A DNA stretch of 64,000 nucleotides, from NCBI GenBank assembly GCA_963807605.1, contig CAWECG010000003.1, positions 448,377 to 512,376 of the forward strand, written 5' to 3'. The number at the start of each line of letters is the position of its first letter. The first letter of the stretch is position 1. The notes beneath the pieces are model-generated. The model searched no databases. It was not told the origin of the DNA and saw only the letters and a program-made list of their open reading frames with translations. Shown here one piece after another: positions 5,998 through 59,207 of this stretch. The position numbers and the translations under genes are program-made. This DNA is from Candidatus Bathyarchaeota archaeon. Its GTDB lineage: Archaea > Thermoproteota > Bathyarchaeia > 40CM-2-53-6 > RBG-13-38-9.

Positions 5998-6060
5998 GAG
6001 ACTCCAAATTCAATTCTTACTGACGATATTTATGGTTAATGGCGAGAAGAAACTTAAGAT

Positions 6061-6214
6061 GCACTCACCAGCTATGTCACACACAGACAAAAAAATCAAT
6101 ACCTAACGGTTAAAATTCAGATGCTCTCACCAAGGGACACAGAAAAATAGCTCGCTCTAACGGTTCAAATCCATGTGATCTCACCAGCTAAGGCGCACAT
6201 ACTTTTTTTTAAGG
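6061..6214 (+). repeat. tandem array of three ~53-nt units of a dispersed repeat family
   Basis: Units start near 6061, 6111 and 6165 and share the core (g)atgc(a/t)ctcaccag.. ..cacaca plus acggtt(a/c)aaat(t/c)ca. The third unit is followed by a T8 run. Confidence 0.7.
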
Positions 6215-6217
6215 AAG

Positions 6218-6406
6218 TTGCTTGTCCCTATTCTAGGGAAGTCTGCAATGGAACTTGATTTGGATTCATGGGAACAACGAGTCGCGAATCCAAAGGCGTT
6301 GGGTGATGCAGGGAAGACTCTGTGGAAGAAAATACAACCTGTTCTCAACGACGTTTTGGATGAGATAAAAAAGAACGGGAGAATTAACAATTTACGTAAA
6401 AGCTGA
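6218..6406 (+). CDS. small hypothetical protein (62 aa) abutting the downstream ORF
   Basis: Its stop TGA is immediately followed by the ATG of 6408..6926 in the +1 frame. It may be a partner protein or the N-terminal part of a frameshifted gene. Confidence 0.3.
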   Translation: MLVPILGKSAMELDLDSWEQRVANPKALGDAGKTLWKKIQPVLNDVLDEIKKNGRINNLRKS

Positions 6407-6407
6407 G

Positions 6408-6926
6408 ATGGACAGACTCAGTGGCCCAATCAAAATGCTTGAAGAAATAACCGCAACTTACAACACGGTAATCCATATCTTTGAGAGACCGCAGGAAGAG
6501 CGGTTGCGATTCTTCCAGGCAATCCAACCATTCGGTTTCGAAGAAGCTAGTGTGACCCGCATGCATCTAACGTTGGCGGTAGCGATCACTGTTCTTTCAA
6601 CAGAACTCTTCAAGCTAGTTCTGCTATTTCATATGAAAGATGTAAGCCCTGATGTCTCAAAATTCAATATCACAATGCAAAGTTCTGCTCCCAAAACTTG
6701 GCCGCTGCTCAAGCTTTTCGTTGACAATGATTTTCGCAACGCCTTAGCGCACGGTACGTACGCTATTGTCAACAAGAAGATTGTCCTCTACAGGGATACA
6801 ACGCTGATTCCATTTGAGGAAATGGAGCTTCACGAGTTCATGATGAGGAGCAAAGATCAGAATGTGCTGTTTCACTGCCTCTTCAATGTCTTAGCGGCTA
6901 AGAAAAGATTGGGCTTCTTCACTTGA
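6408..6926 (+). CDS. hypothetical protein with HEPN-like Rx4HG motif
   Basis: 172 aa, predicted mostly helical. Contains DNDFRNALAHGTY (R-x4-H-G..Y), which resembles the HEPN/HepT ribonuclease active-site motif R(N)xxxH.Y. Confidence 0.45.
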   Translation: MDRLSGPIKMLEEITATYNTVIHIFERPQEERLRFFQAIQPFGFEEASVTRMHLTLAVAITVLSTELFKLVLLFHMKDVSPDVSKFNITMQSSAPKTWPLLKLFVDNDFRNALAHGTYAIVNKKIVLYRDTTLIPFEEMELHEFMMRSKDQNVLFHCLFNVLAAKKRLGFFT

Positions 6927-6997
6927 TCAGTTCGATTAACTAGACTTAGATCCGAAGTATGTGACTTCTGCGAGCGTAGCGAGCCATTAGATTATGA

Positions 6998-7088
6998 TTT
7001 GTGTGTGTGCCATAGCTGGTGAGCACACACAATTAACCTGCTCCAACGGTTCAAATTACGATGCTCTCACCAGCTAAGTTGACAAAAG
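6998..7088. repeat. two copies of the dispersed repeat in inverted orientation (palindromic unit plus tRNA-T-loop-like unit)
   Basis: 6998-7033 'ttgtgtgtgtgccatagctggtgagcacacacaat' is a near-perfect hairpin version. 7045-7088 'aacggttcaaattacgatgctctcaccagctaagttgac' is the direct-orientation unit. Confidence 0.7.
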
Positions 7089-7543: not shown

Positions 7544-7578
7544 TTGTGTGTGTGCCCTAGCTGGTGAGCACACAATGG
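7544..7578 (-). repeat. palindromic copy of the dispersed repeat
   Basis: 'ttgtgtgtgtgccctagctggtgagcacacaatgg' is the reverse complement of the core ctcaccagcta.ggcacacaca and can fold as an 8-9-bp stem hairpin. Confidence 0.7.
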
Positions 7579-7582
7579 ATTC

Positions 7583-8152
7583 CTAGACGTTATCGCGGTA
7601 ATTCCATACCTTCCGAAGAGTTTCCATATATTCTCGGTCTGCGTTTGGATAGAACTCTTCAAGCCTTTTCCATTTCTCGCGCATTTGGGTGACGTCAAGC
7701 ATCCAGTAGGCGTCCTTCATGCTGATTTCTGATGTACTTACGATGAGTCTCACGAGATACTCCTTGAACGATCCCTTCGCGCTCAAATAGCGTTCACTTG
7801 TGCCGAATATCAGATCAGCTATTTCATTTATGGAATTACTTGCTTCAAATGCGAACCATAACAGGGTTAATCCTTTGGGGTCAAATTGCGAGTAGTTCAA
7901 CTGTCCCCATTCCTGATAGTATCTGCTGACAATTTCAGGATGAATCTTCTCCTGAATCACGACATCAATTAGTGACTTGCCACTCTTGAAGAGTCTAAAC
8001 AGCCTTGATGCTAGCTCGCCGTTTAACTCAGAGCTGACTGTCCTTACTTCATCCTCGCTATTGGTGCTGAGGGATTGCGGCTTGAGTGTCCTGTGTATTG
8101 TTGTGATGGAAGAATTTGTTACCTTTGCTATGACTCTATAGCTCATCTTCAA
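7583..8152 (-). CDS. hypothetical protein with N-terminal HTH-like segment
   Basis: 189 aa; the N-terminus YRVIAKVTNSSITTIHRTL looks like a helix-turn-helix. The rest is unassigned. Confidence 0.4.
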   Translation of the reverse strand: MKMSYRVIAKVTNSSITTIHRTLKPQSLSTNSEDEVRTVSSELNGELASRLFRLFKSGKSLIDVVIQEKIHPEIVSRYYQEWGQLNYSQFDPKGLTLLWFAFEASNSINEIADLIFGTSERYLSAKGSFKEYLVRLIVSTSEISMKDAYWMLDVTQMREKWKRLEEFYPNADREYMETLRKVWNYRDNV

Positions 8153-8172: not shown

Positions 8173-9033
8173 ATGCTGCCAGATCCTCGTTTTCCTGCTG
8201 TTTCCGGGGGTATCGTGTACGTAGGCTCAGGGGATGGTAAGGTGTATGCGTTGAATGCTGCTACAGGAGCCAAGGTATGGAATTACGCAACAGGCGTCCC
8301 TGTCGCGTCTTCTCCTGCTGTTTCAGGTGGTATCGTGTACGTAGGCTCATTTGATGGTAATGTGTATGCGTTGAATGCTACCACAGGCGCCAAGGTATGG
8401 AATTACACAGTGCGCTACGGTGTCACAACTTCTTCTCCTGCTGTTTCAGGAACCGTTGTGTACGTAGGCTCATTGGATGGTAAGGTGTATGCGTTTGCAC
8501 CTACTTCAGCTCAGGTGGCTTGTGCCACGGGCACTGGGACGGGGACGTTCACTATGAGTCCGAGTACTGCTGGAGGATTCACAAGTCTAACCGCTTCAGC
8601 ATCATCGAGTGTCTCACCCGCTCCGCCAGCAGGGTTAACGTTTCCTGACGGCTTATTCTCCTTCACAATCTCAGGTCTCGCACCGAGGGCAACTGTTACA
8701 GTAACCCTCAAGTTGCCTGCTCCGTTGCCGGCGGGTTCCTTCTCGTATTGGAAGTTTCAGTCTGGTGTGTGGAGTCAGTATTCGTCGGCTTCGCTTGATT
8801 CCACTCGAACCATTATCACGTTAACCTTCACCGCATCAGCCAGTGGCACAATTACTGACCCTGGGGGCCCAGCAATCGTGCCGCCTCCTCCGTCCGCAAG
8901 ACCGGTCGGAGGCGTCGTGGAACCCGTCAACAAACTCACACTTCTCACACCATATTTGGCCTTCTTCGGAGTGGTCGCGGCTGTTGCAGTCGTCATTGTG
9001 ACGGATAGGAAACGCAGAGAACCCACAGACTAG
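8173..9033 (+). CDS. PQQ-like beta-propeller repeat protein, N-terminally truncated, with C-terminal TM anchor
   Basis: Three or more tandem ~40-aa repeats SPAVSGGIVYVGSxDGxVYALNAxTGAKVWNY (PQQ/WD-like blades), then a Ser/Thr-rich linker and a C-terminal hydrophobic helix plus a basic tail. The ORF starts inside a repeat with no signal peptide, so it is probably a fragment. Confidence 0.6.
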   Translation: MLPDPRFPAVSGGIVYVGSGDGKVYALNAATGAKVWNYATGVPVASSPAVSGGIVYVGSFDGNVYALNATTGAKVWNYTVRYGVTTSSPAVSGTVVYVGSLDGKVYAFAPTSAQVACATGTGTGTFTMSPSTAGGFTSLTASASSSVSPAPPAGLTFPDGLFSFTISGLAPRATVTVTLKLPAPLPAGSFSYWKFQSGVWSQYSSASLDSTRTIITLTFTASASGTITDPGGPAIVPPPPSARPVGGVVEPVNKLTLLTPYLAFFGVVAAVAVVIVTDRKRREPTD

Positions 9034-9070
9034 TCAGTGAGCTGATTTCGCAATCCCTGATTTTGTGTGT

Positions 9071-9120
9071 GTACCTTAGCTGGCGAGAGCATCTAGAATT
9101 GAACCGCTTGGTATTGATTG
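9071..9120 (-). repeat. dispersed repeat copy (reverse orientation)
   Basis: Reverse complement reads 'caagcggttcaattctagatgctctcgccagctaaggtacacacacaaaa', matching the family consensus. Confidence 0.7.
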
Positions 9121-9953
9121 ATGGTGTGTGCTCGCTCCGTGCAAACGTGGAGCGTCTTGACGTCAAAAGTTCTGCAGCGCTAGGCAGACGGGGATACCTT
9201 CTCTTTCTCTACAGGGGCGAGACGGTCTCTTCCCTTTCAAAGGAGGCGGTATCTCTCTCTAATAGTTCCAAGACACACACTAGCGCCCCAATATAAGATT
9301 GATACGGGTTCGTAAGGATAGTACCTTACTAAGCTACGGGCCCGCGCAGTAGCACCTACTCTCCTTTGCATTAAAAAAACCTTTCAGCAAAGCTGCTTAG
9401 AGGAAACAGAGCCTCGCCGTTGTGTACCCAATAATCGGCTATTTCATCTAGTCGGGCTATCCGCAAAAGCGACGAACGAGAAAGGCTTTAAAGTTACTCT
9501 GAAACCTATAGACAAGCTTGGCTGGACTAATAGGCCGTGCCCAACCGTCATGGGTGCATAGAGGTAGTATAGTCTGGCCTAGTAAGCCTAGAAAGGCCTA
9601 GAGTGTACGGCTGTCACCCGTACGACTTCCGATAGGAGGACGTGACGCGGGTCCAAATCCCGCCCTAAGGGGAGCGCTCAAAGCTCTCTCCTGGCGATGG
9701 GCGCCAACCTCATTGCCCGCGTTCACCACTCCAGAGGCAGTCGCTGAGCAGACTATTCTTTTGTGACCGCATGTGGCGGAAAGAATTGGCATCAACAAGC
9801 CAGCAGGTCAGTCATAGAGCTAATTGGTGTTCAGGTCATTCAACCCGTTCTGTAATAAATATCTTCATGCAACAAGGTTGTATCCAAGTGGACAACTATT
9901 CTCTTCGGGAGAAGGAATGTTGGAGCCTTATTCCAGAATTGAGTATATACAGA

Positions 9954-11070
9954 GCGCGCGGGGTTGTCCCGTTATTAGCGTTTTCATGTTAGGTTTGTCC
10001 AGTAGGTTATGCTTCTGGTTTTGGTGGGTTGTTTGGTGTTGTGTGAGGCTTCTATGGTGTAGAGGAGGCATAGTATGCAGTAGCTGATGTGGATGGTGAT
10101 GTTTTCTAGTCCTCGTGTCTTGTGGTTGTTGAGGTTGAGGTGTTCTTTGAGTGATGCGAAGACCAACTCGATGATGGAGCGTTTATTGTAGATGTGTTTG
10201 AGGTTTTCTGGGCCGTGTGTTTTGAAGTCGCTGGTTACTCTGAGGATGTTTTGTCTTTCAGGTTTCTGGTTGGCTGGGTAGGGTATCGCGGTCTTGATTC
10301 TGTGTTTTTTAGCGGTCTCTCTGAGTCTGTTGCTGGAGTATTGACTGTCAGCGGTTAGCTGTCGGATTCTGGTTGCTGTGGTTTTAACTGTCATTTTGAG
10401 GAGTGGTATGCTCGGTTTCTTCTCGTTAGTGTTTGCTGGTGTCACTAGGAATGTTAGGGGTGTGGCTGTGTCTGTATCGACTGTTAGGTGTAGTTTGTAG
10501 CCTAACCCGTATGTGCGGTAGGCTCTTCCTACACGTGCTTGAGGGTCACTGAAGCCTGTTCTATTGTTTATGTTTCGTCTGCTGTAGGCTTTGATGAAGG
10601 TGGCGTCCATAGCAACTATTCTTGGTGTTACATAGCGCTTCTTCAGTAATTTCTTGACCTGTTTGTTTACTATGCGTCTTAGTCTTCTTGTTCCTAGTCG
10701 CTGGTTGAATCTTGAGAGTACCGTCCTACCGTAGGCTGGCTCCTCATATCTTATGTCGCATATGTCACGTAGCCGCTCATCGATCCATAAGCGACGTTCA
10801 AGCTCACGCAGACTGTTTATTCTGAGGTAGCGTCTGGCAAGGTGTGCCTTGAAGAGTCCTAGAGGGTTACGTGGAGGTTTACCTGGACCTTCTTGATGAT
10901 AGCAACTAACAACTAGACGTTCAACAAATGATAAATCCAGATTACTCAGCAGTGACTCCAGAGTCTCGTACCCTTCTATCTGGAATCTCCTCCAAGTAGA
11001 AGGGTGCGGGGCTCAACCCTTATGGATCTTTCCGTGTCAACTCAAAGAATATCGGGACAACCCTGCGCGC
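9954..11070 (-). mobile_element. insertion sequence (~1.1 kb) with 23-bp terminal inverted repeats; IS4/IS5-superfamily DDE transposase
   Basis: Left end 9954-9976 'gcgcgcggggttgtcccgttatt'. The reverse complement of 11048-11070 is 'gcgcgcagggttgtcccgatatt' (21/23 identical). The single internal ORF is a DDE transposase. Flanks are ..caga| and |taga.., suggesting a short AGA-type target duplication. Confidence 0.65.
9984..10988 (-). CDS. IS4/IS5-family DDE transposase (no canonical start codon upstream of Met-126; possibly inactive)
   Basis: The ATG-initiated part (9984..10610) begins MDATFIKAYSRR.., typical of DDE_Tnp_1. The same frame stays open upstream to a TGA at ~10989 and encodes the usual N-terminal region (..GKPPRNPLGLFKAHLARRYL..), but with no ATG/GTG/TTG. 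Confidence 0.6.
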   Translation of the reverse strand, partial: RFQIEGYETLESLLSNLDLSFVERLVVSCYHQEGPGKPPRNPLGLFKAHLARRYLRINSLRELERRLWIDERLRDICDIRYEEPAYGRTVLSRFNQRLGTRRLRRIVNKQVKKLLKKRYVTPRIVAMDATFIKAYSRRNINNRTGFSDPQARVGRAYRTYGLGYKLHLTVDTDTATPLTFLVTPANTNEKKPSIPLLKMTVKTTATRIRQLTADSQYSSNRLRETAKKHRIKTAIPYPANQKPERQNILRVTSDFKTHGPENLKHIYNKRSIIELVFASLKEHLNLNNHKTRGLENITIHISYCILCLLYTIEASHNTKQPTKTRSITYWTNLT

Positions 11071-11326
11071 TAGAAGCCGAGACGATATCTGCATTAATCA
11101 TGGATGAGATGCCGATAGGAGTAGTGAACGATAAACCCGCTGGCGTAAGATTGATACCTGTCCCTAATAGAGAGTTGGCGACACTGTCAAGTTTGGGGGG
11201 TTGTTAGGAGAAACGATCATAATGCCTATCAGCACTTTCAGTTCAGCTAGATTCGTAAGGCGAGGAGGGCAGATTCCAGCCCCTATACTCAGCCTGACAG
11301 GATAACGAGATTGGAGTGAGTTTAAG

Positions 11327-16403: not shown

Positions 16404-17175
16404 CTACGTCTTAGATCTTGCCTTCGGAATGTAAGAATAAAGCTTGGTTGCCGCAAGATGCGGCCCGATCTCAGAGATCACACCCGGCGCTTGTGTTCCC
16501 AGTTTGCATATGAGAATGGTGGATGCGAGGCTGAGTCGCTCAACTCTTACAATATCTTTTGCCAAGCCTGTTCTCTCAATAGCTCTATGAACCGAGTTGA
16601 TGGTTGAACCCAGAACTACTACCCTATCAAATGGGTATCGCTCCCAATCCTTGAAGTATGATTCCTGCCTATCTGTAAGTGCCAATGTCACTTTTCCAGC
16701 ATTCTCAAACCCTTCGATTCCTCACTTTGAGAGGTAAGCCGTCATGGAGGCAGAATCTTCTTGCTATCTGCCTAAGTGATTGAACCCAACCATCTGCAAG
16801 TTGGGCTCTCATCCGATAAAGCGGGTAGAGGCCATCAACTCTCTGTGGGGAAAGGATGCCCAGATCCAAGTACAGGCCATAGCCGACTTCTCCTGAATTC
16901 ACAATGAAGCCGCGATACGTATCGCCGAGTTCCAATTTTGAGAACTGAACGGGTGCTAATCCATAGTGATTTTTTAGAATCTCAGTGAAGACTTCGCTGT
17001 CTTCACCATTATAATCTATTGAAATCCAGCCTCCGGCTCCGGCCTCCATCTTTCCTATCCGGATCTGTAAGCCTGAGGAGATCTCTTCTAGATCTGACTC
17101 TAACTCTTGAAGTCCCTCGCGACTAGGGGTAGGGTCTAACTTCTCAGAAAGAACTGTCTTCATCAACTCAGCCAT
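16404..17175 (-). CDS. hypothetical protein, possibly one gene split by a frameshift (ORFs 16705..17175 and 16404..16691)
   Basis: Two same-strand ORFs are separated by 13 nt in different frames. Neither half matches a known family. The split is inferred by analogy with the confirmed frameshifts elsewhere in this window. Confidence 0.3.
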
Positions 17176-17728
17176 TAATCGTATGTCTTATCTCTTCGTC
17201 GAGTCTTTTGAGCCTCTCTATGGAGGGGTGATCTCGACCGAGTTTATCTGCAAAATGTTTAATCACAAAGTCAATATCGGTGACTTTGCTTCCGCTAACA
17301 AGCTTGTCAGCGTAGCAGACGATTTTCTCCTCAAGCGTCTCAGGCAGGTAATCCTTTGGAGGCAGACCCAAGGCCATCGCCTCTTCCTTAGGGATGCCTG
17401 CTCCGACATGCCTCTCGGCTATCCTCGCCAAGTCTTCGCCGAAGCCAGCTTCCCTGAGAATACCTGCCCCCTCCATCCCATGCTTCACGTCCGTCGTAAC
17501 TGAGCGACCTACGTCATGGAGGAGTGCTCCTGACCTAACTAGAGCCATGTCAACGCGAGTTCCTTTTCTTATGCAGGATTCGGCGAGCTCGACAGCCGTC
17601 GTTGCTACAGCGATGGAATGCTTGATGATCTTTGGATTGCAGGCTTTCTTCTTGAGAAAGCTTAGAGCCTCCTCAGTCGTCGGGCGCTTCAGCTTAGGGG
17701 GTGAGGACAACCTTAATCGGATCATCAC
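17168..17728 (-). CDS. HD-domain (HDIG) metal-dependent phosphohydrolase
   Basis: 186 aa with the H..HD motif (ALLHDVGR) plus downstream conserved His/Asp residues (ERHVGAGIP ... CYADKLV). Confidence 0.7.
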   Translation of the reverse strand: MMIRLRLSSPPKLKRPTTEEALSFLKKKACNPKIIKHSIAVATTAVELAESCIRKGTRVDMALVRSGALLHDVGRSVTTDVKHGMEGAGILREAGFGEDLARIAERHVGAGIPKEEAMALGLPPKDYLPETLEEKIVCYADKLVSGSKVTDIDFVIKHFADKLGRDHPSIERLKRLDEEIRHTING

Positions 17729-18788
17729 CTTCGACCTCGTTTGCAGCCAACTTCAAACCTTTCTCCGCTTCTTCCAGTGGGAGAACGTGGGTGGCCATCT
17801 TCTTTATTGGGTATTTCTGTTCCTCCAGTAGTCTTACAGCCGCCTCGACATTCCAAGCTTGGCCGAGTCCGCCAACTATCTTGAGCTCTTTCATGACTAT
17901 CTCATCGGTTGGTATTGGAACTGTCTTTCCACCTGTCAAGCCGGGGATAACAATGGTCCCTAATGCTTTGACGAGTCTCGGTGCTTCTGAGATGGCCTTG
18001 ACTGAGCCTGTGTTAAAAATTGTCACATCGCTCATCTCTCCGGACGTTATCTCTGCTACACGCTCTACCAGGTTGACCTCATCGACATTTACTGTGTAGT
18101 CAGCTCCAAACTCCCTTCCCAGCTGAAGTCTCTTCTTGTCAATAGATGTTCCCGCAAGAATGATCGTACCGGCACCAACATGGTCCGCAACCATGACTGT
18201 CGCCAAGCCTTGAGAGCCGGGTCCGACAACGACGACAGTGTCACCGGGCTGAACATTTCCTTTAGTGCAGATCCACCGCAAGCCATTGCCAACCACGGAA
18301 GCAAGGCATGCTTCCTCTTTTGGAACATTGGAAGATACCTTATGAACTCGGGAGTTCGGGGCGACGTACATGTATTGTCCATACGCCCCCCACAGGTGAG
18401 GAGGCTCTCTGCATGAGATGTTCACACCATAGCATCTATTATTGATGCAGATCGGGTAATTCCCAGTTAAGCAATATCTACATCTTCCGCAGGGGATGTA
18501 TGGCTCTACGATCAGTCGGTCGCCAACTTTCACCTTATAGTATTCTGAGGCTTTACGTCCAACTTGATGTGCTCTTCCGACCAATTCATGGCCCATGATT
18601 ATTGGGAAGGGAGTTGCTAGTATTCCCCCGAATTTCGTCCCGACGTATCTCTCAGCATCGGAGCCGCAGACGCTGACAGCCTCAATTTGCAGAAGCATAT
18701 CTTCTGGACCGATTGAAGGGATGTCGAAATTCTGAAGCTGAACTTTTCTTGGCGCCTCGAGTACTACAGACAATTCTCGGTTTGACAC
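17694..18788 (-). CDS. zinc-dependent alcohol/threonine dehydrogenase family (MDR) oxidoreductase
   Basis: 364 aa. Catalytic Zn ligands (CGSDAERY, GHELVG), a structural Zn Cys cluster (CGRCRYCLTGNYPIC) and a Rossmann GxGxxG (VVVGPGSQG). Confidence 0.8.
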   Translation of the reverse strand: MSNRELSVVLEAPRKVQLQNFDIPSIGPEDMLLQIEAVSVCGSDAERYVGTKFGGILATPFPIIMGHELVGRAHQVGRKASEYYKVKVGDRLIVEPYIPCGRCRYCLTGNYPICINNRCYGVNISCREPPHLWGAYGQYMYVAPNSRVHKVSSNVPKEEACLASVVGNGLRWICTKGNVQPGDTVVVVGPGSQGLATVMVADHVGAGTIILAGTSIDKKRLQLGREFGADYTVNVDEVNLVERVAEITSGEMSDVTIFNTGSVKAISEAPRLVKALGTIVIPGLTGGKTVPIPTDEIVMKELKIVGGLGQAWNVEAAVRLLEEQKYPIKKMATHVLPLEEAEKGLKLAANEVEGDDPIKVVLTP

Positions 18789-29937: not shown

Positions 29938-30666
29938 ATGCCAGAAACGGGAGAGTTCGGTGGGAGTAAGCCAGTGAAAAAGGAAGAGCCCGTTCAGCAA
30001 GCCCTCAGAATACTCGGGATTCCCAGTTCTATCAACGTGAAGCTTGTGAAGAGCAAGAGAGTGGCGCCCTACGCAACTTTAGTATCTTACAGACAAAGTC
30101 AAGATGGAGAATCAAACCTAGAATATGTGATAGAGTATAGGAAGAATATGAAACCAGAGTTATTGAGACACGAACTCTGTCATCTTAAGCTTCATCTAAT
30201 GGGTCTGCCTGTGGTTGAGGTTGACGTAGGCTCGCCACCCAGTCTGCGAAGCCAAGTGCTTAGCACCCTACATGAAGACTACTATGCGAGCCTAATAATG
30301 CACCAGAAGTTCACGAAAGATTTCTTGTCGTCAATAATGAGAGACACGGGCAGTGGCGATCACGGCATACACCTCCATGATGAGGTCAACGATGATCTCC
30401 TCTCATGGTTACTCCAGAGATACGTCCTAAAAATTGCCGTACTTGAAGCTCTAGGATACAAGAATGAGGCCGAAACCAATAGAGAAGAAATAGAGCACTT
30501 GAAAGAGGAATCACATTTACAGCTTTACCTCTATCTGAACGCTATCTGTGAATATCTGAGTAGACTGCCGCCTCTGGATCCAAGTCTAAGGAAATTCACG
30601 GCTGAGGAGAAGGATTGCATCGGAAAAATAGTTGGAGCAATAAACGATGTTGAGATTTCTCTATGA
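29938..30666 (+). CDS. hypothetical protein with HExxH motif (putative metallopeptidase-like)
   Basis: 242 aa with LLRHELCHLKLH (HExxH) and a downstream His/Glu-rich region (HQKF...GDHGIHLHDE). Divergent from the upstream HTH regulator. Confidence 0.35.
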   Translation: MPETGEFGGSKPVKKEEPVQQALRILGIPSSINVKLVKSKRVAPYATLVSYRQSQDGESNLEYVIEYRKNMKPELLRHELCHLKLHLMGLPVVEVDVGSPPSLRSQVLSTLHEDYYASLIMHQKFTKDFLSSIMRDTGSGDHGIHLHDEVNDDLLSWLLQRYVLKIAVLEALGYKNEAETNREEIEHLKEESHLQLYLYLNAICEYLSRLPPLDPSLRKFTAEEKDCIGKIVGAINDVEISL

Positions 30667-30675
30667 GTCGCGGCT

Positions 30676-30879
30676 CTACTCTTTTACTTCAATGGCCTGT
30701 GTTGGACATTGTGTTTCACAAGCGCGGCAGACAATGCAGGAATCATTGTTCACAGGAACAGCTTTCGTTTCACCGTTGAAGTCAGGTTTATTCTGTAGCT
30801 CAAAGACTGAAACTGGGCAGACGCTGACACAAGTTCCATCCCCATTACATTTGGAAAAGTCTACTGTGACCTTTGGCAT
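30676..30879 (-). CDS. 2x[4Fe-4S] ferredoxin
   Basis: 67 aa with two cluster motifs: C-x6-C-x3-CP (CNGDGTCVSVCP) and C-x2-C-x2-C-x3-CP (CIVCRACETQCP). Confidence 0.75.
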   Translation of the reverse strand: MPKVTVDFSKCNGDGTCVSVCPVSVFELQNKPDFNGETKAVPVNNDSCIVCRACETQCPTQAIEVKE

Positions 30880-31007
30880 TATTACACCTCACAATTTTTG
30901 GCTCCAACAGTTCAGCATTATCTCTTATATAGTTTCCTTAAATGAGAGAAGTTTAATACTGCTTGAACTCATCTTAGCCAGCTCTTCCGGGTTAGAGAGC
31001 TTAATCG

Positions 31008-32234
31008 ATGAATCATGCGCAAGACTACAGAGAGATACGCAGAGGAGAATATGAGATGACAAGAAATCTTTCCGATAGATCGCTAGAGCTCAAACAGTCG
31101 GCCTTCGCGGAGTTCTTCGCAGAAGCAGTCGAGATGCAGCGTTCAGGAGAGGATGTAATACATCTACATGTTGGAGAACCTGACTTCAAGACTCCAAGAC
31201 ATATTGTGGAGGCAGCTCGATTAGCAATGGAAGAAGGTTTCACACATTACACTCCTCCGGGAGGATTCTACGAACTAAGAGAGACGATCTCAGAGAAACT
31301 AAAGAACGATAATGGAATAGAAGCGGATCCCTCGAGTGAGATTTGTGTTCTCTCTGGCGGCTACAGTGCGCTCTACTGCGCTTTTCAAGCACTCATCAAT
31401 CGAGGCGATGAGGTTATACTTCCTCAGCCTTGCCTGCCCCAATACTGGGGCGACATAGTCTTAGCGGGTGGCAAAGCAGTTTCCCTCAGACTGTGCAAGG
31501 AAAACCAGTTCAAACCGGATCTTGATGAACTCAAGTCAAAGGTCAGCGAGAAGTCTAAGGTACTTCTGTTAAACTCCCCCCAAAACCCGACCGGTTCAGT
31601 ATTAACTGAAAAGGACATGACAGGCATTGCGGACATTGTTGAAAGTAATAAGCTCTTCGTCATCTCCGACGAAGTCTACGAGAAGTTCATATACAACGGC
31701 CAAGGGCACATCAGCTTCGCAACTATACCTGGAATGACGGAGAGAACCCTAACCGTAAATTCCTTCTCCAAGACTTATGCGATGACTGGCTGGAGAGTGG
31801 GATATGCCGCGGGAAACAGCGAACTGATCGCCAAAATCCGCGCAATAAGTGAACATACCTGTTGGTGTCCTAACTCGATAGCACAGAAAGCCGCTATCGC
31901 CGCGTTGAAGGGCCCTCAAGAGTGCGTCAAAGAGATGGTTGAGGAATTTAGGAGAAGACGCGATCTAATAACAACCGGTCTCAACCAGATTGACGGGTTT
32001 AAATGCAATTCACCAGGAGGAGCCTTCTACGCATTCCCTGACATTGAAGAGGTCGGACTATCATCAATGGATTTGGCGCAGTCTCTCCTGAGGAAAGCGA
32101 AGGTCGCGGTCGTCCCCGGCATCGCCTTTGGGTCGGAAGGTGAGGGGAGCATTAGATTCTCTTTCGCAAACTCAAGAGAGCACATAAGCGAGGCGTTAGA
32201 ACGAATAAAGAAGACAGTGAAAGTCCTAGGTTGA
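31008..32234 (+). CDS. class I/II pyridoxal-phosphate-dependent aminotransferase (aspartate aminotransferase family)
   Basis: Fold-type I motifs, including the PLP lysine context SFSKTYAMTGWRVGY and N-terminal LHVGEPDF. The likely true start is the internal Met at ~31056. Confidence 0.8.
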   Translation: MNHAQDYREIRRGEYEMTRNLSDRSLELKQSAFAEFFAEAVEMQRSGEDVIHLHVGEPDFKTPRHIVEAARLAMEEGFTHYTPPGGFYELRETISEKLKNDNGIEADPSSEICVLSGGYSALYCAFQALINRGDEVILPQPCLPQYWGDIVLAGGKAVSLRLCKENQFKPDLDELKSKVSEKSKVLLLNSPQNPTGSVLTEKDMTGIADIVESNKLFVISDEVYEKFIYNGQGHISFATIPGMTERTLTVNSFSKTYAMTGWRVGYAAGNSELIAKIRAISEHTCWCPNSIAQKAAIAALKGPQECVKEMVEEFRRRRDLITTGLNQIDGFKCNSPGGAFYAFPDIEEVGLSSMDLAQSLLRKAKVAVVPGIAFGSEGEGSIRFSFANSREHISEALERIKKTVKVLG

Positions 32235-47301: not shown

Positions 47302-47475
47302 AATTCAGGCCATTTCGATTCCCAAGCCGAATCTCGTTCGATCCCGTTTGCCATTCACTATTTCAAGAAAACTCAGTCCAAACCATGAAAGGTCTGCAAG
47401 TCGTAGACTAACGATTGCTTTGTCGGGTAATCAGCGAAATCATGCAGAAAGCCAACGGAGGGCTCTAGCCTGACA

Positions 47476-47513
47476 ATATTGATTGGTAGCGCGGACTAGC
47501 TGGCAGGCTACCG
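47476..47513 (+). terminator. hairpin plus T-run downstream of the cbi operon (candidate terminator)
   Basis: 'ggtagc gcggactagctggcag gctacc' (6-bp stem) is immediately followed by 'gatttttt'. Confidence 0.3.
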
Positions 47514-48027: not shown

Positions 48028-48062
48028 CTAGCTCATCAGCTAAGGCGCACACACAAAATCAC
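48028..48062 (+). repeat. partial copy of the dispersed repeat (3' half)
   Basis: 'ctagctcatcagctaaggcgcacacacaaaatcac' carries the core agctaaggcgcacacac. Confidence 0.65.
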
Positions 48063-48081: not shown

Positions 48082-48834
48082 TCATTTCTCTCCAGCGATA
48101 ATACCTATCGTTCCCACCATAAATGGCAATTTTAGCGCCAGAGGAATAAAGGCAGCTTCTCGTGTTTCTATAAATTGCGCGTTTCTTATCCCCCAACTTC
48201 GGATAGTCTCAATCAAATCAGCTGTATTGCCATATATCTGCCTCCGCAAGAACAAGTCCTGAAAGACAAATATTCCCCCCTTCTTAACCACACGCAATGC
48301 TTCCCGGATAACTTCTCGCTTATCTTTGGTGTCCCTCACTTCATGAAACACGAGATTGCTTACAACCGCATCAAAATACCCATCCTCAAATGGTAACGCC
48401 GAAGCGCTGGCTTTCTGGAAGGTTACACGCTCATCTACTCCTTCAATCTTCGCATTGCTTTCACATGTGTTTTTTGAGTATCCCCACCGTCTTCCCCAAG
48501 AGTCAATTCCCACAACCCGGCCTCTCGCATACTTTTGAGCAAGCTTGATCGTAAGGGCACCATTTCCACATCCTATATCCAATGCGCGCCCTTCTCCATT
48601 CCAATCCAAATGTGCCAAAACCAATTCAACGATATGGTCTTGGATATTCCCCCCTTGGGCAGAAAACTTGTATCGCGCATACGCACAATAGAGGGAAACT
48701 AGGAAGAACAAACCAGCAGGAATTACGAAGACTGGAAACAAAAGGGCAACCCCCAAAAACACGAGACCTGCAGCACCAGGAATATAGACTAGTCTCTTTG
48801 AGAGCCAGTTCCCGTATTCTGGCTTTCCTGCCAT
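48082..48834 (-). CDS. class I SAM-dependent methyltransferase with N-terminal membrane anchor
   Basis: Motif I (LDIGCGNGALTIKLAQ), motif II (VVGIDSW) and a later DAVVSNLVFHEV; two N-terminal hydrophobic helices. Flanked by repeat copies on both sides. Confidence 0.7.
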   Translation of the reverse strand: MAGKPEYGNWLSKRLVYIPGAAGLVFLGVALLFPVFVIPAGLFFLVSLYCAYARYKFSAQGGNIQDHIVELVLAHLDWNGEGRALDIGCGNGALTIKLAQKYARGRVVGIDSWGRRWGYSKNTCESNAKIEGVDERVTFQKASASALPFEDGYFDAVVSNLVFHEVRDTKDKREVIREALRVVKKGGIFVFQDLFLRRQIYGNTADLIETIRSWGIRNAQFIETREAAFIPLALKLPFMVGTIGIIAGEK

Positions 48835-48955: not shown

Positions 48956-49010
48956 CACAAAAATCACGATTCAAATCATGATGCTCTCACCAGCTAAGGC
49001 ACACACACAG
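48956..49010 (+). repeat. full copy of the dispersed repeat
   Basis: 'acaaaaatcacgattcaaatcatgatgctctcaccagctaaggcacacacacag'. Confidence 0.7.
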
Positions 49011-51258: not shown

Positions 51259-51492
51259 CTATGGTGAACGTTCGAGTCTGGCGAGGACTTTGGAGTACAT
51301 TCGGAAAGGTGTTCTGCCGGCCGCATTCTTGCGAAGGTGATGCAGTGTACTCTTAGCGATTCCTGGTTTAGAGGCTTGCTTTTGAGTCAACTCTAGGATT
51401 CGTTTACGAAGCTCCACACTATAGCTTTCTACCAGGTTGGGAGGCGCGCGCGCTTTTATATTTTCATTCTCTTCCGGCGAGAATATCTTCAA
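51259..51492 (-). CDS. small hypothetical protein (77 aa), possible HTH
   Basis: A basic C-terminus with LTQKQASKPGIAKSTLHHLRK. Overlaps the 3' end of the next gene by 29 nt. Uncertain. Confidence 0.25.
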   Translation of the reverse strand: MKIFSPEENENIKARAPPNLVESYSVELRKRILELTQKQASKPGIAKSTLHHLRKNAAGRTPFRMYSKVLARLERSP

Positions 51493-52084
51493 TTGGCGGG
51501 AAAGGAGGCTCAGCGCCTATTGAGGAGATCCTGCCGGTTGGGCATACAACATAGCAATGGTTGCATACTGTGCATATTGCTGCCTTTTCAGGGTAGAGCG
51601 CAATCCGTCTCCTTACGCCTCTTCCCACAGATCCAATCGCGCTATCCCAAGTCGCCTCAATGCACCGACGAAGACATAACCCACATAGGATGCATTTCGT
51701 GGGGTCGCTCTGCACCTTTGAGCGGAATCTAGAGAGATCAGCCTTGTATTCGCCGGCCAATTCGCGCATCCTGCCAGCGACATCTTCTCCCGCAGATGCG
51801 GCAGCCAACTCGAGTATGGTCTTTCTCATAGAATCGATTCTGGGAGACCTCGTTCTTACCTTCAAGCCTTCCTCAGCAGGGTAGCAGCACGCAGCGACTA
51901 TCCGTGATCTGCCTCTCTTCTCGATCTCCACGCTGCAGATGCGACAGACGCCATACGACTCCAGCTCCTCGTGATGGCACAGCGTCGGTATCTCCACGCC
52001 TGAACACTTTGCAGCCTCCAGAATCGTCATTCCCTCTTCGGCTTCAACATCTCTATCGTCTATTCTCAAGCTTAGAGCCTTCAT
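51464..52084 (-). CDS. stand-alone NuoG/HydA-N-terminal-like iron-sulfur protein ([2Fe-2S] plus [4Fe-4S] domains)
   Basis: 206 aa with a 2Fe-2S ferredoxin-type N-terminus (CHHEELESYGVCRIC), a His/Cys cluster region (ACCYPAEE), then CILCGLCLRRC and CTVCNHCYVVCP. No catalytic molybdopterin or H-cluster domain follows. Confidence 0.7.
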   Translation of the reverse strand: MKALSLRIDDRDVEAEEGMTILEAAKCSGVEIPTLCHHEELESYGVCRICSVEIEKRGRSRIVAACCYPAEEGLKVRTRSPRIDSMRKTILELAAASAGEDVAGRMRELAGEYKADLSRFRSKVQSDPTKCILCGLCLRRCIEATWDSAIGSVGRGVRRRIALYPEKAAICTVCNHCYVVCPTGRISSIGAEPPFPPIEDILAGRE

Positions 52085-57154: not shown

Positions 57155-58129
57155 CTAGAAGCTCGCTGTCTTTTCCAGTGCTGTCATAATCTTTTCCACG
57201 TCTGGAAGATAATAGTTCTCCAGCTTGAAGAGTGGAAAAGGAACATCTAGGCCTGTGACCCGCGCAATCGGGGCCTCTAAACTTAGAAAGACTTTCTCGT
57301 TGATGAGCGCGGTGATCTCAGCACCGAGCCCGCACGTCTTAGGCGCTTCATGGACGATTACGGCTCTTCCTGTCTTCTCAACGGATTTGACCACGGTTTC
57401 GCTATCTAAAGGTGAGAGAGTGCGAAGGTCAATGACCTCTACGCTGATCTTATTTCCTTCCTTCTCAGCAGCTTCCAGAGAAGGTCGCATCATTGCGCCC
57501 CAAGAGATCACTGTGACGTCGCTGCCCTCTCGAACTACCTTTGCCTTGCCGAGTGGTACGACGTAATCTTCCTCAGGTACATCGCCCCTGACTGCGCGGT
57601 AAATTCTCTTCGGTTCCATGAAGATTACGGGGTCAGGGTCTCTGATGGCTGAGATGAGTAGGCCTTTCGTATCGAATGGTGTCGACGGTGTTGTGACTTT
57701 GATACCTGGAGTATGGACGAGATACGCTTCAGGGCTGTCGGAATGGTGTTCGGGCGGGCGTATCCCTCCGCCGTACGGAACTCTAACTACAAGTGGTACG
57801 TGGAATCTCCCGCGAGAACGGTTTCTTATCTTTCCAGCATGGGATATGATCTGGTCCAGTGCGGGGTATAGGAAACCCTCGAACTGAATCTCTGCCACTG
57901 GCCTCAGGCCGTATAACGCCAAGCCTATTGCGACACCCACTATTCCAATTTCGGAGAGTGGTGTATCTATCACTCTGTTCTCTCCAAATTCGTCTACCAG
58001 GCCTTCAGTCGCTCTGAAGACTCCGCCGTTTCTCCCTACGTCCTCTCCCAAGATCAGGACATTTGGGTCTCTCGTCATCTCTTGCTGGAGGGCGGACTTT
58101 ACGGCTTGGACGATATTCAGCTCAGCCAT
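57155..58129 (-). CDS. 2-oxoacid dehydrogenase E1 component beta subunit
   Basis: The transketolase-like beta subunit begins at MAELNIVQAVKSALQQEM.. (about 58129), overlapping E1-alpha by 8 nt. The track ORF (to 58312) adds ~60 implausible residues read through the alpha gene. Confidence 0.85.
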   Translation of the reverse strand: MAELNIVQAVKSALQQEMTRDPNVLILGEDVGRNGGVFRATEGLVDEFGENRVIDTPLSEIGIVGVAIGLALYGLRPVAEIQFEGFLYPALDQIISHAGKIRNRSRGRFHVPLVVRVPYGGGIRPPEHHSDSPEAYLVHTPGIKVTTPSTPFDTKGLLISAIRDPDPVIFMEPKRIYRAVRGDVPEEDYVVPLGKAKVVREGSDVTVISWGAMMRPSLEAAEKEGNKISVEVIDLRTLSPLDSETVVKSVEKTGRAVIVHEAPKTCGLGAEITALINEKVFLSLEAPIARVTGLDVPFPLFKLENYYLPDVEKIMTALEKTASF

Positions 58130-59207
58130 TTCGCTCGACTCCTCTGGATCGCAAGAGTTCTTCGTACTGTGTCTTGAGGTGTGGTGGCAACTCGGCGTAC
58201 GTCCAGACGAAGAGGTCTTTGATCTCTTGAGGAGTAATGGATTCTGCCTTCTGGACGGCTTGTTGAACCTTTGCCATGGCTTCTGCTTGGACTCTCTTTT
58301 CGTACTCCTCATTCCAGAGTCCCTTGTGCTGCAGATACTTGCGTAACCTATCTACTGGATCTCGTTTGATCCATGCTTCCAACTCTTCCTTTGGCCTGTA
58401 TCTTGACGCGTCATCGGAGGTTGTATGGTCGGCTATTCTGTAGGTGACACACTCGATCATTGTGGGACCTTTGCCTGACCGGGCTTTCTCTAGAGCCTCT
58501 TTGGTAGCCTTGTACACGGCGAACACATCATTCCCATCAATTTGGATTCCTTCGAAGCCGTAAGCCAGCGCTTTCTGAGCTAACGTTTGCGAAGCAGTCT
58601 GTCGGCTTCTAGGGACCGATATTGCCCACTGATTATTCTCACATACGAAGACTATTGGTACCTTGAAGGTTCCGGCGAAATTAGAGCCTTCGTGAAAATC
58701 TCCTTTGGATGTTGCTCCGTCTCCAAGATAGACTAGGACCGCTTTTCGATCTCCTTTAAGTTTGGCGGCCCAGGCGAAACCGACTGCGTGAGGAATTTGG
58801 GTTCCCACGGGAACGGCGACGGTGAAGGCGTTAATGTTTTCTGGAATCTTATTCCCTCTTTCATCTCCGCCCCAATATTCATAGAGCATCTCCATCGGCA
58901 AACCCATGGCGATATATGCAGGATTTTCTCTAAACGATGGAAACATCCAGTCAGAACTCTCGAGAGCATACACGCTTGCCACCTGAGCAGCTTCCTGCCC
59001 CCTGGCTGAAGCATAGGTTCCGATCCTGCCTTCACGCTGCAACTTTACAGCAACATCATCGAAGGTTCTGGATAAGATCATCAATTCAAAAATTTCCTTG
59101 ATCTGGCTGTCAGATAGGTCAGGCTTCAGCGCTTCGTCACAATTTCCCTCCTCGTCAAGAATCTTCAAAATGGGAACATCGAATCTTGTGACAATCTCTC
59201 GTGGCAT
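58122..59207 (-). CDS. 2-oxoacid dehydrogenase E1 component alpha subunit (TPP-dependent)
   Basis: 361 aa with a TPP motif (GDGATSKGDFHEGSNFA ... ENNQWAIS) and a phosphorylation-loop-like region (YRIADHTTSDD). Confidence 0.85.
   Translation of the reverse strand: MPREIVTRFDVPILKILDEEGNCDEALKPDLSDSQIKEIFELMILSRTFDDVAVKLQREGRIGTYASARGQEAAQVASVYALESSDWMFPSFRENPAYIAMGLPMEMLYEYWGGDERGNKIPENINAFTVAVPVGTQIPHAVGFAWAAKLKGDRKAVLVYLGDGATSKGDFHEGSNFAGTFKVPIVFVCENNQWAISVPRSRQTASQTLAQKALAYGFEGIQIDGNDVFAVYKATKEALEKARSGKGPTMIECVTYRIADHTTSDDASRYRPKEELEAWIKRDPVDRLRKYLQHKGLWNEEYEKRVQAEAMAKVQQAVQKAESITPQEIKDLFVWTYAELPPHLKTQYEELLRSRGVERNG

Follow-up and report, generated by a model that had tools for sequence, protein, structure and literature searches.

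Two abutting open reading frames (ORFs) near the start of a 64,000-nt stretch of DNA from a Candidatus Bathyarchaeota archaeon (GenBank assembly GCA_963807605.1, contig CAWECG010000003.1, positions 448,377–512,376 of the forward strand; this whole stretch is called the window below) raise the question of whether they encode a two-component toxin–antitoxin or abortive-infection (Abi) module or are the parts of one broken gene. The first ORF reads 62 codons from a TTG (6218–6406, +) and ends with a TGA at 6404–6406; the second, of 172 codons (6408–6926, +), starts with an ATG at 6408, a single base (6407) after that stop. The larger product carries the sequence DFRNALAHGTY (codons at 6729–6761; R at 6735–6737, H at 6750–6752), which recalls the catalytic motif of HEPN RNases, and the pair lies between copies of a dispersed repeat, one on the plus strand at 6180–6201 and one on the minus strand at 7002–7023. 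These three observations had been made in an original prediction from the letters alone, and they were confirmed. Alignment with homologues indicates that 6248–6926 is one gene of about 226 codons, broken by a 2-nt deletion after codon 46, and a single frameshifted HEPN-like solo gene in mobile-element debris is, in our view, the likely explanation of the locus as a whole.

One frameshifted gene

With the 172-aa protein as query, 47 relatives were found, nearly all of them 221–247 aa long and covering both ORFs; all are labelled 'hypothetical' and none has a Pfam annotation. The homologues are single proteins of about 226 aa, and their first 54 residues are matched by the 62-aa ORF together with the stretch in which the 172-aa frame runs on upstream of its ATG. 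Indeed, the homologue N-termini (MELDSDSWEQRVANP...NGKIETIYVKAEMDRLSGP) can be followed through the small ORF of the window from the ATG at 6248 and then through the 172-aa frame extended upstream. This ATG (MELDLDSW...) is the real start, the same as in all homologues, and replaces the TTG at 6218, which falls within a leader conserved with the locus of the closest relative (locus L001, encoding protein P0002; 88% nucleotide identity). The segment 6203–6247 (+), a T-rich, TATA-like box with a short leader, is near-identical to L001 from TTTTTTTTAAGGAAGTTGCTTGTC to the ATG and is probably the promoter and leader of the gene. It is followed by the N-terminal coding segment (6248–6385, +), i.e. 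codons 1–46 of the ancestral gene of about 226 codons, which aligns with the homologues (MELDSDSWEQRVANP...NGKI) and has 88% DNA identity to L001. The C-terminal coding segment (6387–6926, +) comprises codons 48–226 and the stop, contains the 172-aa ORF and continues the homologues in frame (TIYVKAEMDRLSGP...). Seen in this way, the 62-aa ORF is a mechanical product of the leader (6218–6247), codons 1–46, a six-codon out-of-frame tail (NNLRKS) and a stop.

The break itself lies at 6383–6389 (+), where pairwise and four-way DNA alignments place ATTAACA in the window opposite ATT GAA ACA in the orthologues. Compared with three intact orthologues (L001, L006 and L002), two nucleotides (GA) are missing after position 6385; L001 reads AAAATTGAAACAATT where the window reads AGAATT--AACAATT. 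In the four-way alignment this gap is the only indel in the gene whose length is not a multiple of three. Since the homologues span both ORFs and the window lacks two nucleotides present in intact orthologues, we conclude that the locus holds one frameshifted gene and not a two-gene module. The orthologues evolve under purifying selection, with ratios of nonsynonymous to synonymous substitution rates (dN/dS) of 0.16–0.22, and it is therefore a real gene.

A true toxin–antitoxin or Abi pair, in which a 52- or 62-aa protein would neutralize a 172-aa HEPN-like toxin, has become highly improbable. Stop and start are 1 nt apart (TGAGATG) and would permit translational coupling, the 172-aa part folds confidently alone in structure prediction, and a second family locus (L116) is likewise split, near residue 52–56. 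However, both parts form one polypeptide in ~90% of homologues, the tail of the small ORF is out-of-frame junk, and other broken copies are split elsewhere (L008 near residue 150, and also L012). Two separately conserved, co-oriented genes, as expected of a type II toxin–antitoxin system, were not found, the small ORF being the N-terminus of the same protein in homologues; nor does any minimal nucleotidyltransferase (MNT) or other antitoxin gene lie nearby, and no neighbour is conserved across seven genomic contexts. The 'partner' of the original prediction thus turns out to be part of the protein that it was thought to accompany. Programmed frameshifting was rejected as well, because the intact orthologues simply carry two extra bases. 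If the deletion is real, one might speculate that the TGAGATG junction could permit re-initiation and so yield a self-contained 172-aa core. Annotators should join the two ORFs, of which one has been deposited as a 172-aa protein, and mark the result as a frameshifted gene or a pseudogene.

Mutation or assembly error

That the two ORFs might be a single gene split by one of the homopolymer frameshifts seen elsewhere in the contig had also been considered in the original prediction. The split of a single gene was borne out by the homologues and the 2-nt gap, but not the simple homopolymer error, as the lost GA sits in TTGAAAC. We lean towards a real mutation rather than an assembly error, because the family is often disrupted at other loci. 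In fact, 4 of the 13 loci read at the DNA level are disrupted: besides the window, L116 (803–1469) has an indel in an A-run at residues ~52–56, near the break point of the window, in a short-read assembly; L008 (7980–8686) is frameshifted near residue 150 and also has R->S and H->Y exchanges in the motif; and L012 (7739–8282) is split in two fragments. In an unbiased sample, the species-representative genomes, two of five informative loci are broken.

The opposite case, that the gap is a sequencing or assembly artefact and the organism has an intact, expressed 226-aa gene and no pseudogene here, retains an appreciable chance of being right. Under this reading the deletion site would have the form ATTGAAACA, where the window assembly reads ATTAACA. 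Except for the 2-nt gap, the frame is open across all 224 remaining codons, the gap lies within an A-rich stretch, and the source contig measures 1.16 Mb, which suggests a long-read assembly. A further point against an inactivated gene is that dN/dS in the window lineage is not clearly relaxed, nor is it raised relative to L006 or L002; therefore the lesion is either very recent or an artefact. On the other side, the loss of GA from TTGAAAC is no simple homopolymer length error, long ORFs are dense through the rest of the window, so that indel errors are not rampant, and the three other family loci have been disrupted independently, including in short-read assemblies, so that real inactivation is common. 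A metagenome scan for independent assemblies sharing the deletion gave no match to the exact frameshift region. Elsewhere in the window, three same-strand ORF pairs overlap by 46–190 nt (30647–32234, 57155–59207 and 16705–18788); they may be additional cases of frameshifted genes or simply operon genes that overlap, and they bear on the quality of the assembly.

A HEPN-type motif in a probably HEPN-like fold

The published definition of the HEPN superfamily (Anantharaman et al. 2013, PMC3710099) describes a four-helix up-down bundle with an Rx4-6H motif, in which a polar residue (N, D or H) comes right after the R and which is located at the end of helix 3 or the start of the loop to helix 4; helix 2 further contains an acidic residue, most often within Ex3[KR], and helices 2 and 3 are separated by an insert. 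The family of the window gene carries R-N-A-L-A-H (6735–6752, +), a motif of the type Rx4H with N after R. The R, N and H of this R-N-x3-H are invariant in 98 diverse family members, and the residue following the R is polar as defined. Upstream, E-L-F-K (6603–6614, +) supplies a conserved acidic residue and a K/R in the long helix before the motif; the Glu is conserved in at least 90% of the 98 sequences, mostly as E-x2-[KR] and in a subset as E-x3-[KR], so that the acidic residue of the definition is present.

AlphaFold2 (AF2) gave a predicted local distance difference test score (pLDDT) of 90.3 for the 226-aa P0002, and a pLDDT of 97.1 with a predicted template-modelling score (pTM) of 0.89 for the 172-aa ORF of the window. 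In the models, the conserved Glu lies in a long helix (residues 100–128), which is followed by three short helices, the last one ending in RNALAH, and then by a three-stranded beta-meander and a long C-terminal helix. As far as predicted structures can tell, the order of these elements and the position of the motif fit the published definition, including a beta-hairpin like that of Csx1, where it directly follows the HEPN motif (PMC3710099).

Database searches point in the same direction, though only below significance. When the 172-aa model was compared with the PDB by Foldseek, 9 of the top 50 chains were HepT/HEPN toxins (8xeh, 8xdj, 8yuf, 6m6u, 6m6w, 7bxo); these matches had the highest TM-scores of the list (TMt 0.41–0.51), with a best E-value of 1, which is not significant. 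In a PADLOC scan of 84 members, the models matched, below threshold, by the largest number of members were Csx1/Csm6 (CARF+HEPN; 3 members) and RTasHEPN (3), and further sub-threshold matches were to Csx1 (E = 3.7e-4) and CARF_HEPN in PADLOC, to Cas13e and Csm6 in NCBIfam, and to Cas_Csm6_HEPN and DUF4209 in Pfam (the latter in two plus two family members). DUF4209 (C6orf70) is itself a HEPN family (PMC3710099).

Several results weigh against the assignment. The best Foldseek E-values range from 0.26 to 1 across models, and the full-length model had no meaningful match in the PDB or BFVD, and none to HepT/HEPN. Nothing in Pfam, NCBIfam or PADLOC reached threshold for the window protein, and significant profile similarity to an established HEPN family was not found; enrichment for HEPN models is seen in the sub-threshold matches only. 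Sequence-profile searches of the PDB with two family alignments retrieved designed helical repeats only, and hhalign against a DUF4145 profile built in this analysis gave a probability of 0.2% and was negative in global, local and trimmed form. A regular-expression search for DUF86-type genes in all fetched loci, sought as a second HEPN profile, found none. The HEPN-like character claimed in the original prediction is therefore upheld in its motif, R and H being invariant throughout the 98 members, while no profile or fold search was significant and the database matches are recurrent only below threshold.

We nevertheless consider it quite likely that the family belongs to the HEPN superfamily. 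The contrary view is that the protein has a different helical fold, with RNxxxH as a convergent active site or as a non-catalytic structural or ligand-binding motif, so that no RNase function could be assumed. Every database match is sub-threshold, the DUF4145 comparison is negative, the Foldseek TM-scores do not exceed 0.51 at root-mean-square deviations of at least 6 Å, and the motif helix is just eight residues long and leads into a three-stranded sheet, an unusual arrangement for a canonical HEPN protein. We hold this view to be unlikely, as the sub-threshold matches from four independent libraries converge on HEPN-bearing models, and the motif grammar (N after R, an upstream helical E...K/R and an insert between) and position match the published definition; in addition, Csx1 HEPN domains likewise have a beta-hairpin after the motif.

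Proposed function and likeness to known HEPN systems

The protein is most likely a divergent enzyme of the HEPN superfamily, i.e. a metal-independent RNase. By analogy with known members, it would form dimers whose cleavage of RNA halts growth in conflict with viruses or mobile elements. Its gene stands alone, without a conserved antitoxin or partner, and family copies are frequently inactivated. RNase activity and a role in defence or as a toxin are inferred by analogy. Against this proposal, a solo RNase that is constitutively active would have to be held in check in some way, and no such mechanism is evident.

Among known systems, HepT (DUF86; e.g. PDB 6M6U, 7BXO, 8XEH), the HEPN toxin of HepT–MntA toxin–antitoxin systems, is likewise small and helical, with an aromatic residue after its R-x4-H; HepT proteins come up repeatedly among the best structural matches (TMt 0.41–0.51; E-values not significant), as those of no other protein class do. 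Unlike in HepT–MntA, no adjacent MNT gene accompanies the window family, as seen in the window and six other contexts. The family also differs from HepT in lacking a DUF86 match in Pfam, in the position of the aromatic residue (Tyr/Phe at +3 in RNALAHGTY of the window, but at +2 in the RX4HXY of HepT), and in ~90 extra residues, which form an N-terminal helical extension and the three-stranded beta-meander after the motif. Csx1/Csm6 (CARF+HEPN) gave the best sub-threshold hidden Markov model (HMM) matches, and Csx1 shares the beta-hairpin directly after Rx4-6H (PMC3710099); however, the window family has neither a CARF or other sensor domain nor a CRISPR–Cas neighbourhood, and the matches fall a long way short of the curated thresholds. 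Other HEPN proteins that stand alone or are loosely linked in restriction–modification and defence islands, such as the DUF4209/C6orf70 type, AbiD/F, AbiJ, AbiU2 and DUF4145, resemble the window family in their setting and in the common occurrence of RNxxxH, but none of them gives a significant match, and the window family is essentially confined to Bathyarchaeia.

Distribution, neighbourhoods and decay of the family

When 1.84 billion proteins were searched exhaustively with an HMM (E <= 0.001), 198 cluster representatives (50% identity) emerged, essentially all of them single-domain proteins of 210–240 aa and none with a Pfam annotation. In a second profile search of a 5.8-billion-protein set, none of the 88 hits had a Pfam annotation, so that no bridge to annotated families emerged. 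Pfam, NCBIfam and PADLOC contain no model for the family, and no match to the gene came up when both ORFs and the genes around them were scanned. Relatives in species-representative genomes are Bathyarchaeia metagenome-assembled genomes and one partial match in a myxobacterium. Judged by these searches, the family is found almost only in Bathyarchaeia and consists of unannotated, stand-alone proteins of about 226 aa. A compact family of some 200 clusters that carries a HEPN catalytic signature but lacks a Pfam, NCBIfam or PADLOC model would add a candidate solo RNase effector to the sparse record of conflict systems in Bathyarchaeia.

Family members were found in seven distinct neighbourhoods that have no gene in common, and no MNT gene, other candidate antitoxin or conserved partner was detected in the window and the six other contexts. 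In the window, the gene is accompanied by an NYN RNase, small unknown ORFs, a cupin and an insertion sequence (IS) element; in L001, by a 2TM gene, a SWIM gene and a UPF0175/DUF3368 pair; in L002, by an integrase fragment, DUF4145, an SbcCD-like gene and a Cas4-helicase; in L006, by Multi-ubiq/E2/E1-JAB and TIR genes together with HsdR; and in L014, by a terminase with an intein. Several of these (L006, L002 and L014) are defence or mobile contexts. The members at L016 (purine biosynthesis genes) and L018 (housekeeping genes) lie among housekeeping functions, which is not suggestive of defence. Such a patchy distribution, with variable islands and frequent decay, is to be expected where a gene of defence or toxin type carries a cost, although this role is an inference; the combination of frequent inactivation (4/13) with a mobile-element setting likewise suits a costly, toxin-like gene.

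A repeat-bounded block

The dispersed repeat on either side of the gene (core CTCACCAGCTAAGGCACACACA) occurs in seven copies within three mismatches in the window, compared with none expected from 100 shuffles. Its sites are 6051–6201, 7002–7087, 7547–7568, 9066–9087, 48032–48053 and 48986–49007. The last two flank a methyltransferase gene (48082–48834). The centre of the repeat is a near-palindromic 14-mer (CTCACCAGCTA[A/T]GG). On its two sides stand either (TG)n/(CA)n, which produce a hairpin form, or GTTCAAnTTnGGATGCT. Upstream of the gene, three repeat units form an array with a period of ~55–60 nt (6051–6201, +). The left boundary of the block is a repeat made of the 14-mer CTCACCAGCTAAGG and CGCACATAC (6180–6202, +), at which homology to L001 begins, the flank upstream of it being unrelated. 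The right boundary repeat (7002–7023, -), with its 14-mer at 7010–7023 inverted, marks the other end, homology to L001 ending at 7028; together with its flanking TG/CA runs it can form a DNA hairpin of -10.7 kcal/mol (z = -3.7). The right-end sequence GCGAGCGTAGCGAGCC - AT-rich - (TG)5 (6970–7009, +) is also present downstream in L001.

The stretch 6180–7028, repeat to repeat, is the only DNA common to the 15.9-kb L001 and the 64-kb window, and the genes flanking the block in the two are unrelated even at the protein level. From this comparison, the gene is contained in an 830-bp block that is bounded by the 14-mer-centred repeats. Beyond the window, a 22-mer of the repeat was found in 95 JGI metagenome contigs, in the forms GTTCAATTTTGGATGCT-CTCACCAGCTAAGG-CACACACA and, as a hairpin, (TG)n-CTCACCAGCTAAGG-(CA)n. 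The HEPN-like gene is absent from all 80 repeat-bearing metagenome loci returned, and no family locus other than the window and L001 has the repeat, so that the association is confined to this lineage.

Some established types of repeat were considered for this element and set aside. An integron attC site was rejected owing to the high conservation of sequence rather than of structure only, the lack of R''/R' consensus ends and the lack of an IntI nearby. A CRISPR array was rejected as an explanation of the 55–62-nt repeat arrays, since whole units are conserved and variable spacers are missing. A tRNA 3'-end as the target of the repeat is not supported, as no tRNA genes occur in the window or in 60 repeat loci. 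An Rfam scan of the window returned no family.

Cas1-associated elements at the same repeats

Five of the repeat-bearing contigs encode Cas1 (PF01867 at 2.9e-51; TIGR00287) and have no CRISPR array. In one of them, L042 (repeat sites at 87–305 and 9174–9239), direct copies of the 14-mer bracket an 8.9-kb segment that encodes Cas1 and a TIR-domain protein besides several unknown ORFs. At its right end the segment reads GCGAGCGTAGCAAGCC-AT-rich-(TG)n, which resembles 6970–7009 of the window (cf. GCGAGCGTAGCAAGCCATCATATTTT(TG)n), and a 62-nt-period array of repeat units lies beside the element, as at 6051–6201. L085 has the same gene set (repeats at 566–592, 6327–6348 and 7031–7052); its 14-mers are inverted, as in the window, whereas those in L042 are direct. 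At the left end of the window block, only a CA/TG stub is in common.

Traces of such elements occur in the window itself. Two Cas1 remnants (47394–47486 and 51271–51501, both on the minus strand) lie close to the repeats at 48032 and 48986; one is 87% identical over 30 aa to residues 227–256 of the L042 Cas1, and the other is 45–54% identical over the C-terminal ~57–77 aa. Next to the repeat at 7547–7568, a 189-aa ORF with weak helix-turn-helix matches (7583–8152, -) has 55% identity over 203 aa to L085 609–1250(-), and, like this terminal ORF of the L085 element, it is placed and oriented in the same way at a (TG)n+14-mer junction. As far as can be read from the aligned loci, the repeats are junction sites of a Cas1-associated mobile-element family. 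Their appearance suggests junction or target sites used by a family of casposon-like elements in Bathyarchaeia.

Casposons have a target-site duplication of 15 bp and can form tandem arrays separated by duplication segments (PMC5137440). The elements described here are similar in that Cas1 occurs with no CRISPR array in a segment that lies between 14-nt direct repeats (compared with the 15-bp duplication, PMC5137440), that there are arrays of target-like units beside the element, and that genes of defence type (the TIR domain) are among the cargo. They differ from casposons in that no family-B polymerase (PolB) is found among the ORFs of at least 100 aa of the L042 element, the site has no tRNA gene, the two ends are asymmetric, and the 14-mer stands inverted in some cases.

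It is tempting to regard the repeat-bounded block as an active non-autonomous mobile cassette that is moved in trans by a casposase-like Cas1 integrase and carries the HEPN-like gene as cargo; we think this rather unlikely. The occurrence of the same block (88% identity) between the same repeats but unrelated flanks in L001 argues for it, as do the 22-mer in 95 metagenome contigs, five of them with Cas1 and no CRISPR array, the direct 14-mers around the Cas1/TIR segment of L042 with its window-like right end, the Cas1 remnants of the window and the homologue of the terminal L085 ORF beside the repeat at 7547. However, no Cas1 (casposase) lies inside the HEPN-like block (6194–7009), and elsewhere in the window there are remnants only. 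The narrow occurrence of the gene among repeat loci (0/80), and of the repeat among family loci, argues against a mobile cassette too. Moreover, the left end of the block has a 9-nt CA-rich stub only in place of the left-end sequence of the elements (CGACGACGA), the flanking 14-mers are inverted rather than direct, with no clean target-site duplication, and the Cas1 elements show neither PolB nor a tRNA target. Recombination at dispersed repeats would yield the same boundaries. Given the missing PolB and tRNA, the inverted 14-mers and the 9-nt left stub, a mobile cassette is therefore a lead and not a conclusion.

The more specific proposal, that the HEPN-like gene is the cargo of a small non-autonomous unit of an undescribed, polymerase-less, Cas1-dependent element family of Bathyarchaeia, is distinctly unlikely. 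If true, such a family would insert or shuffle single-gene units at a conserved, near-palindromic 14-bp site and so build cassette-like arrays of accessory and defence genes, and the island at 6.0–9.1 kb of the window would be such an array in decay. The repeat in any case links this island to Cas1-carrying elements that do not lie beside CRISPR arrays, which is the more interesting by-product of the analysis. The safer statement is that the low-GC island in which the gene lies (42–44% G/C versus 47–50%) is debris of the Cas1-associated element family.

Other features of the window

The first 9 kb of the window are gene-poor and low in G/C, and contain a 170-aa NYN-domain (PIN-like RNase) protein (2184–2696, +; Pfam E = 1.2e-30). 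Within a repeat-bounded unit, a PQQ/beta-propeller repeat protein with a C-terminal hydrophobic anchor is encoded at 8173–9033 (+), and its gene includes three 120-nt tandem DNA repeats (8188–8495). Beta-propeller proteins (PD40-like) are also the commonest ORF family in the repeat-bearing metagenome contigs (20/80 loci). The edge of the low-GC island is marked by the IS element (9953–11071), which has a DDE_Tnp_1 transposase ORF (9984–10610, -) and 24-nt inverted repeats (9953–9976 and 11048–11071, 92% complementary); core genes follow, among them those for geranylgeranyl reductase and isocitrate/isopropylmalate dehydrogenase.

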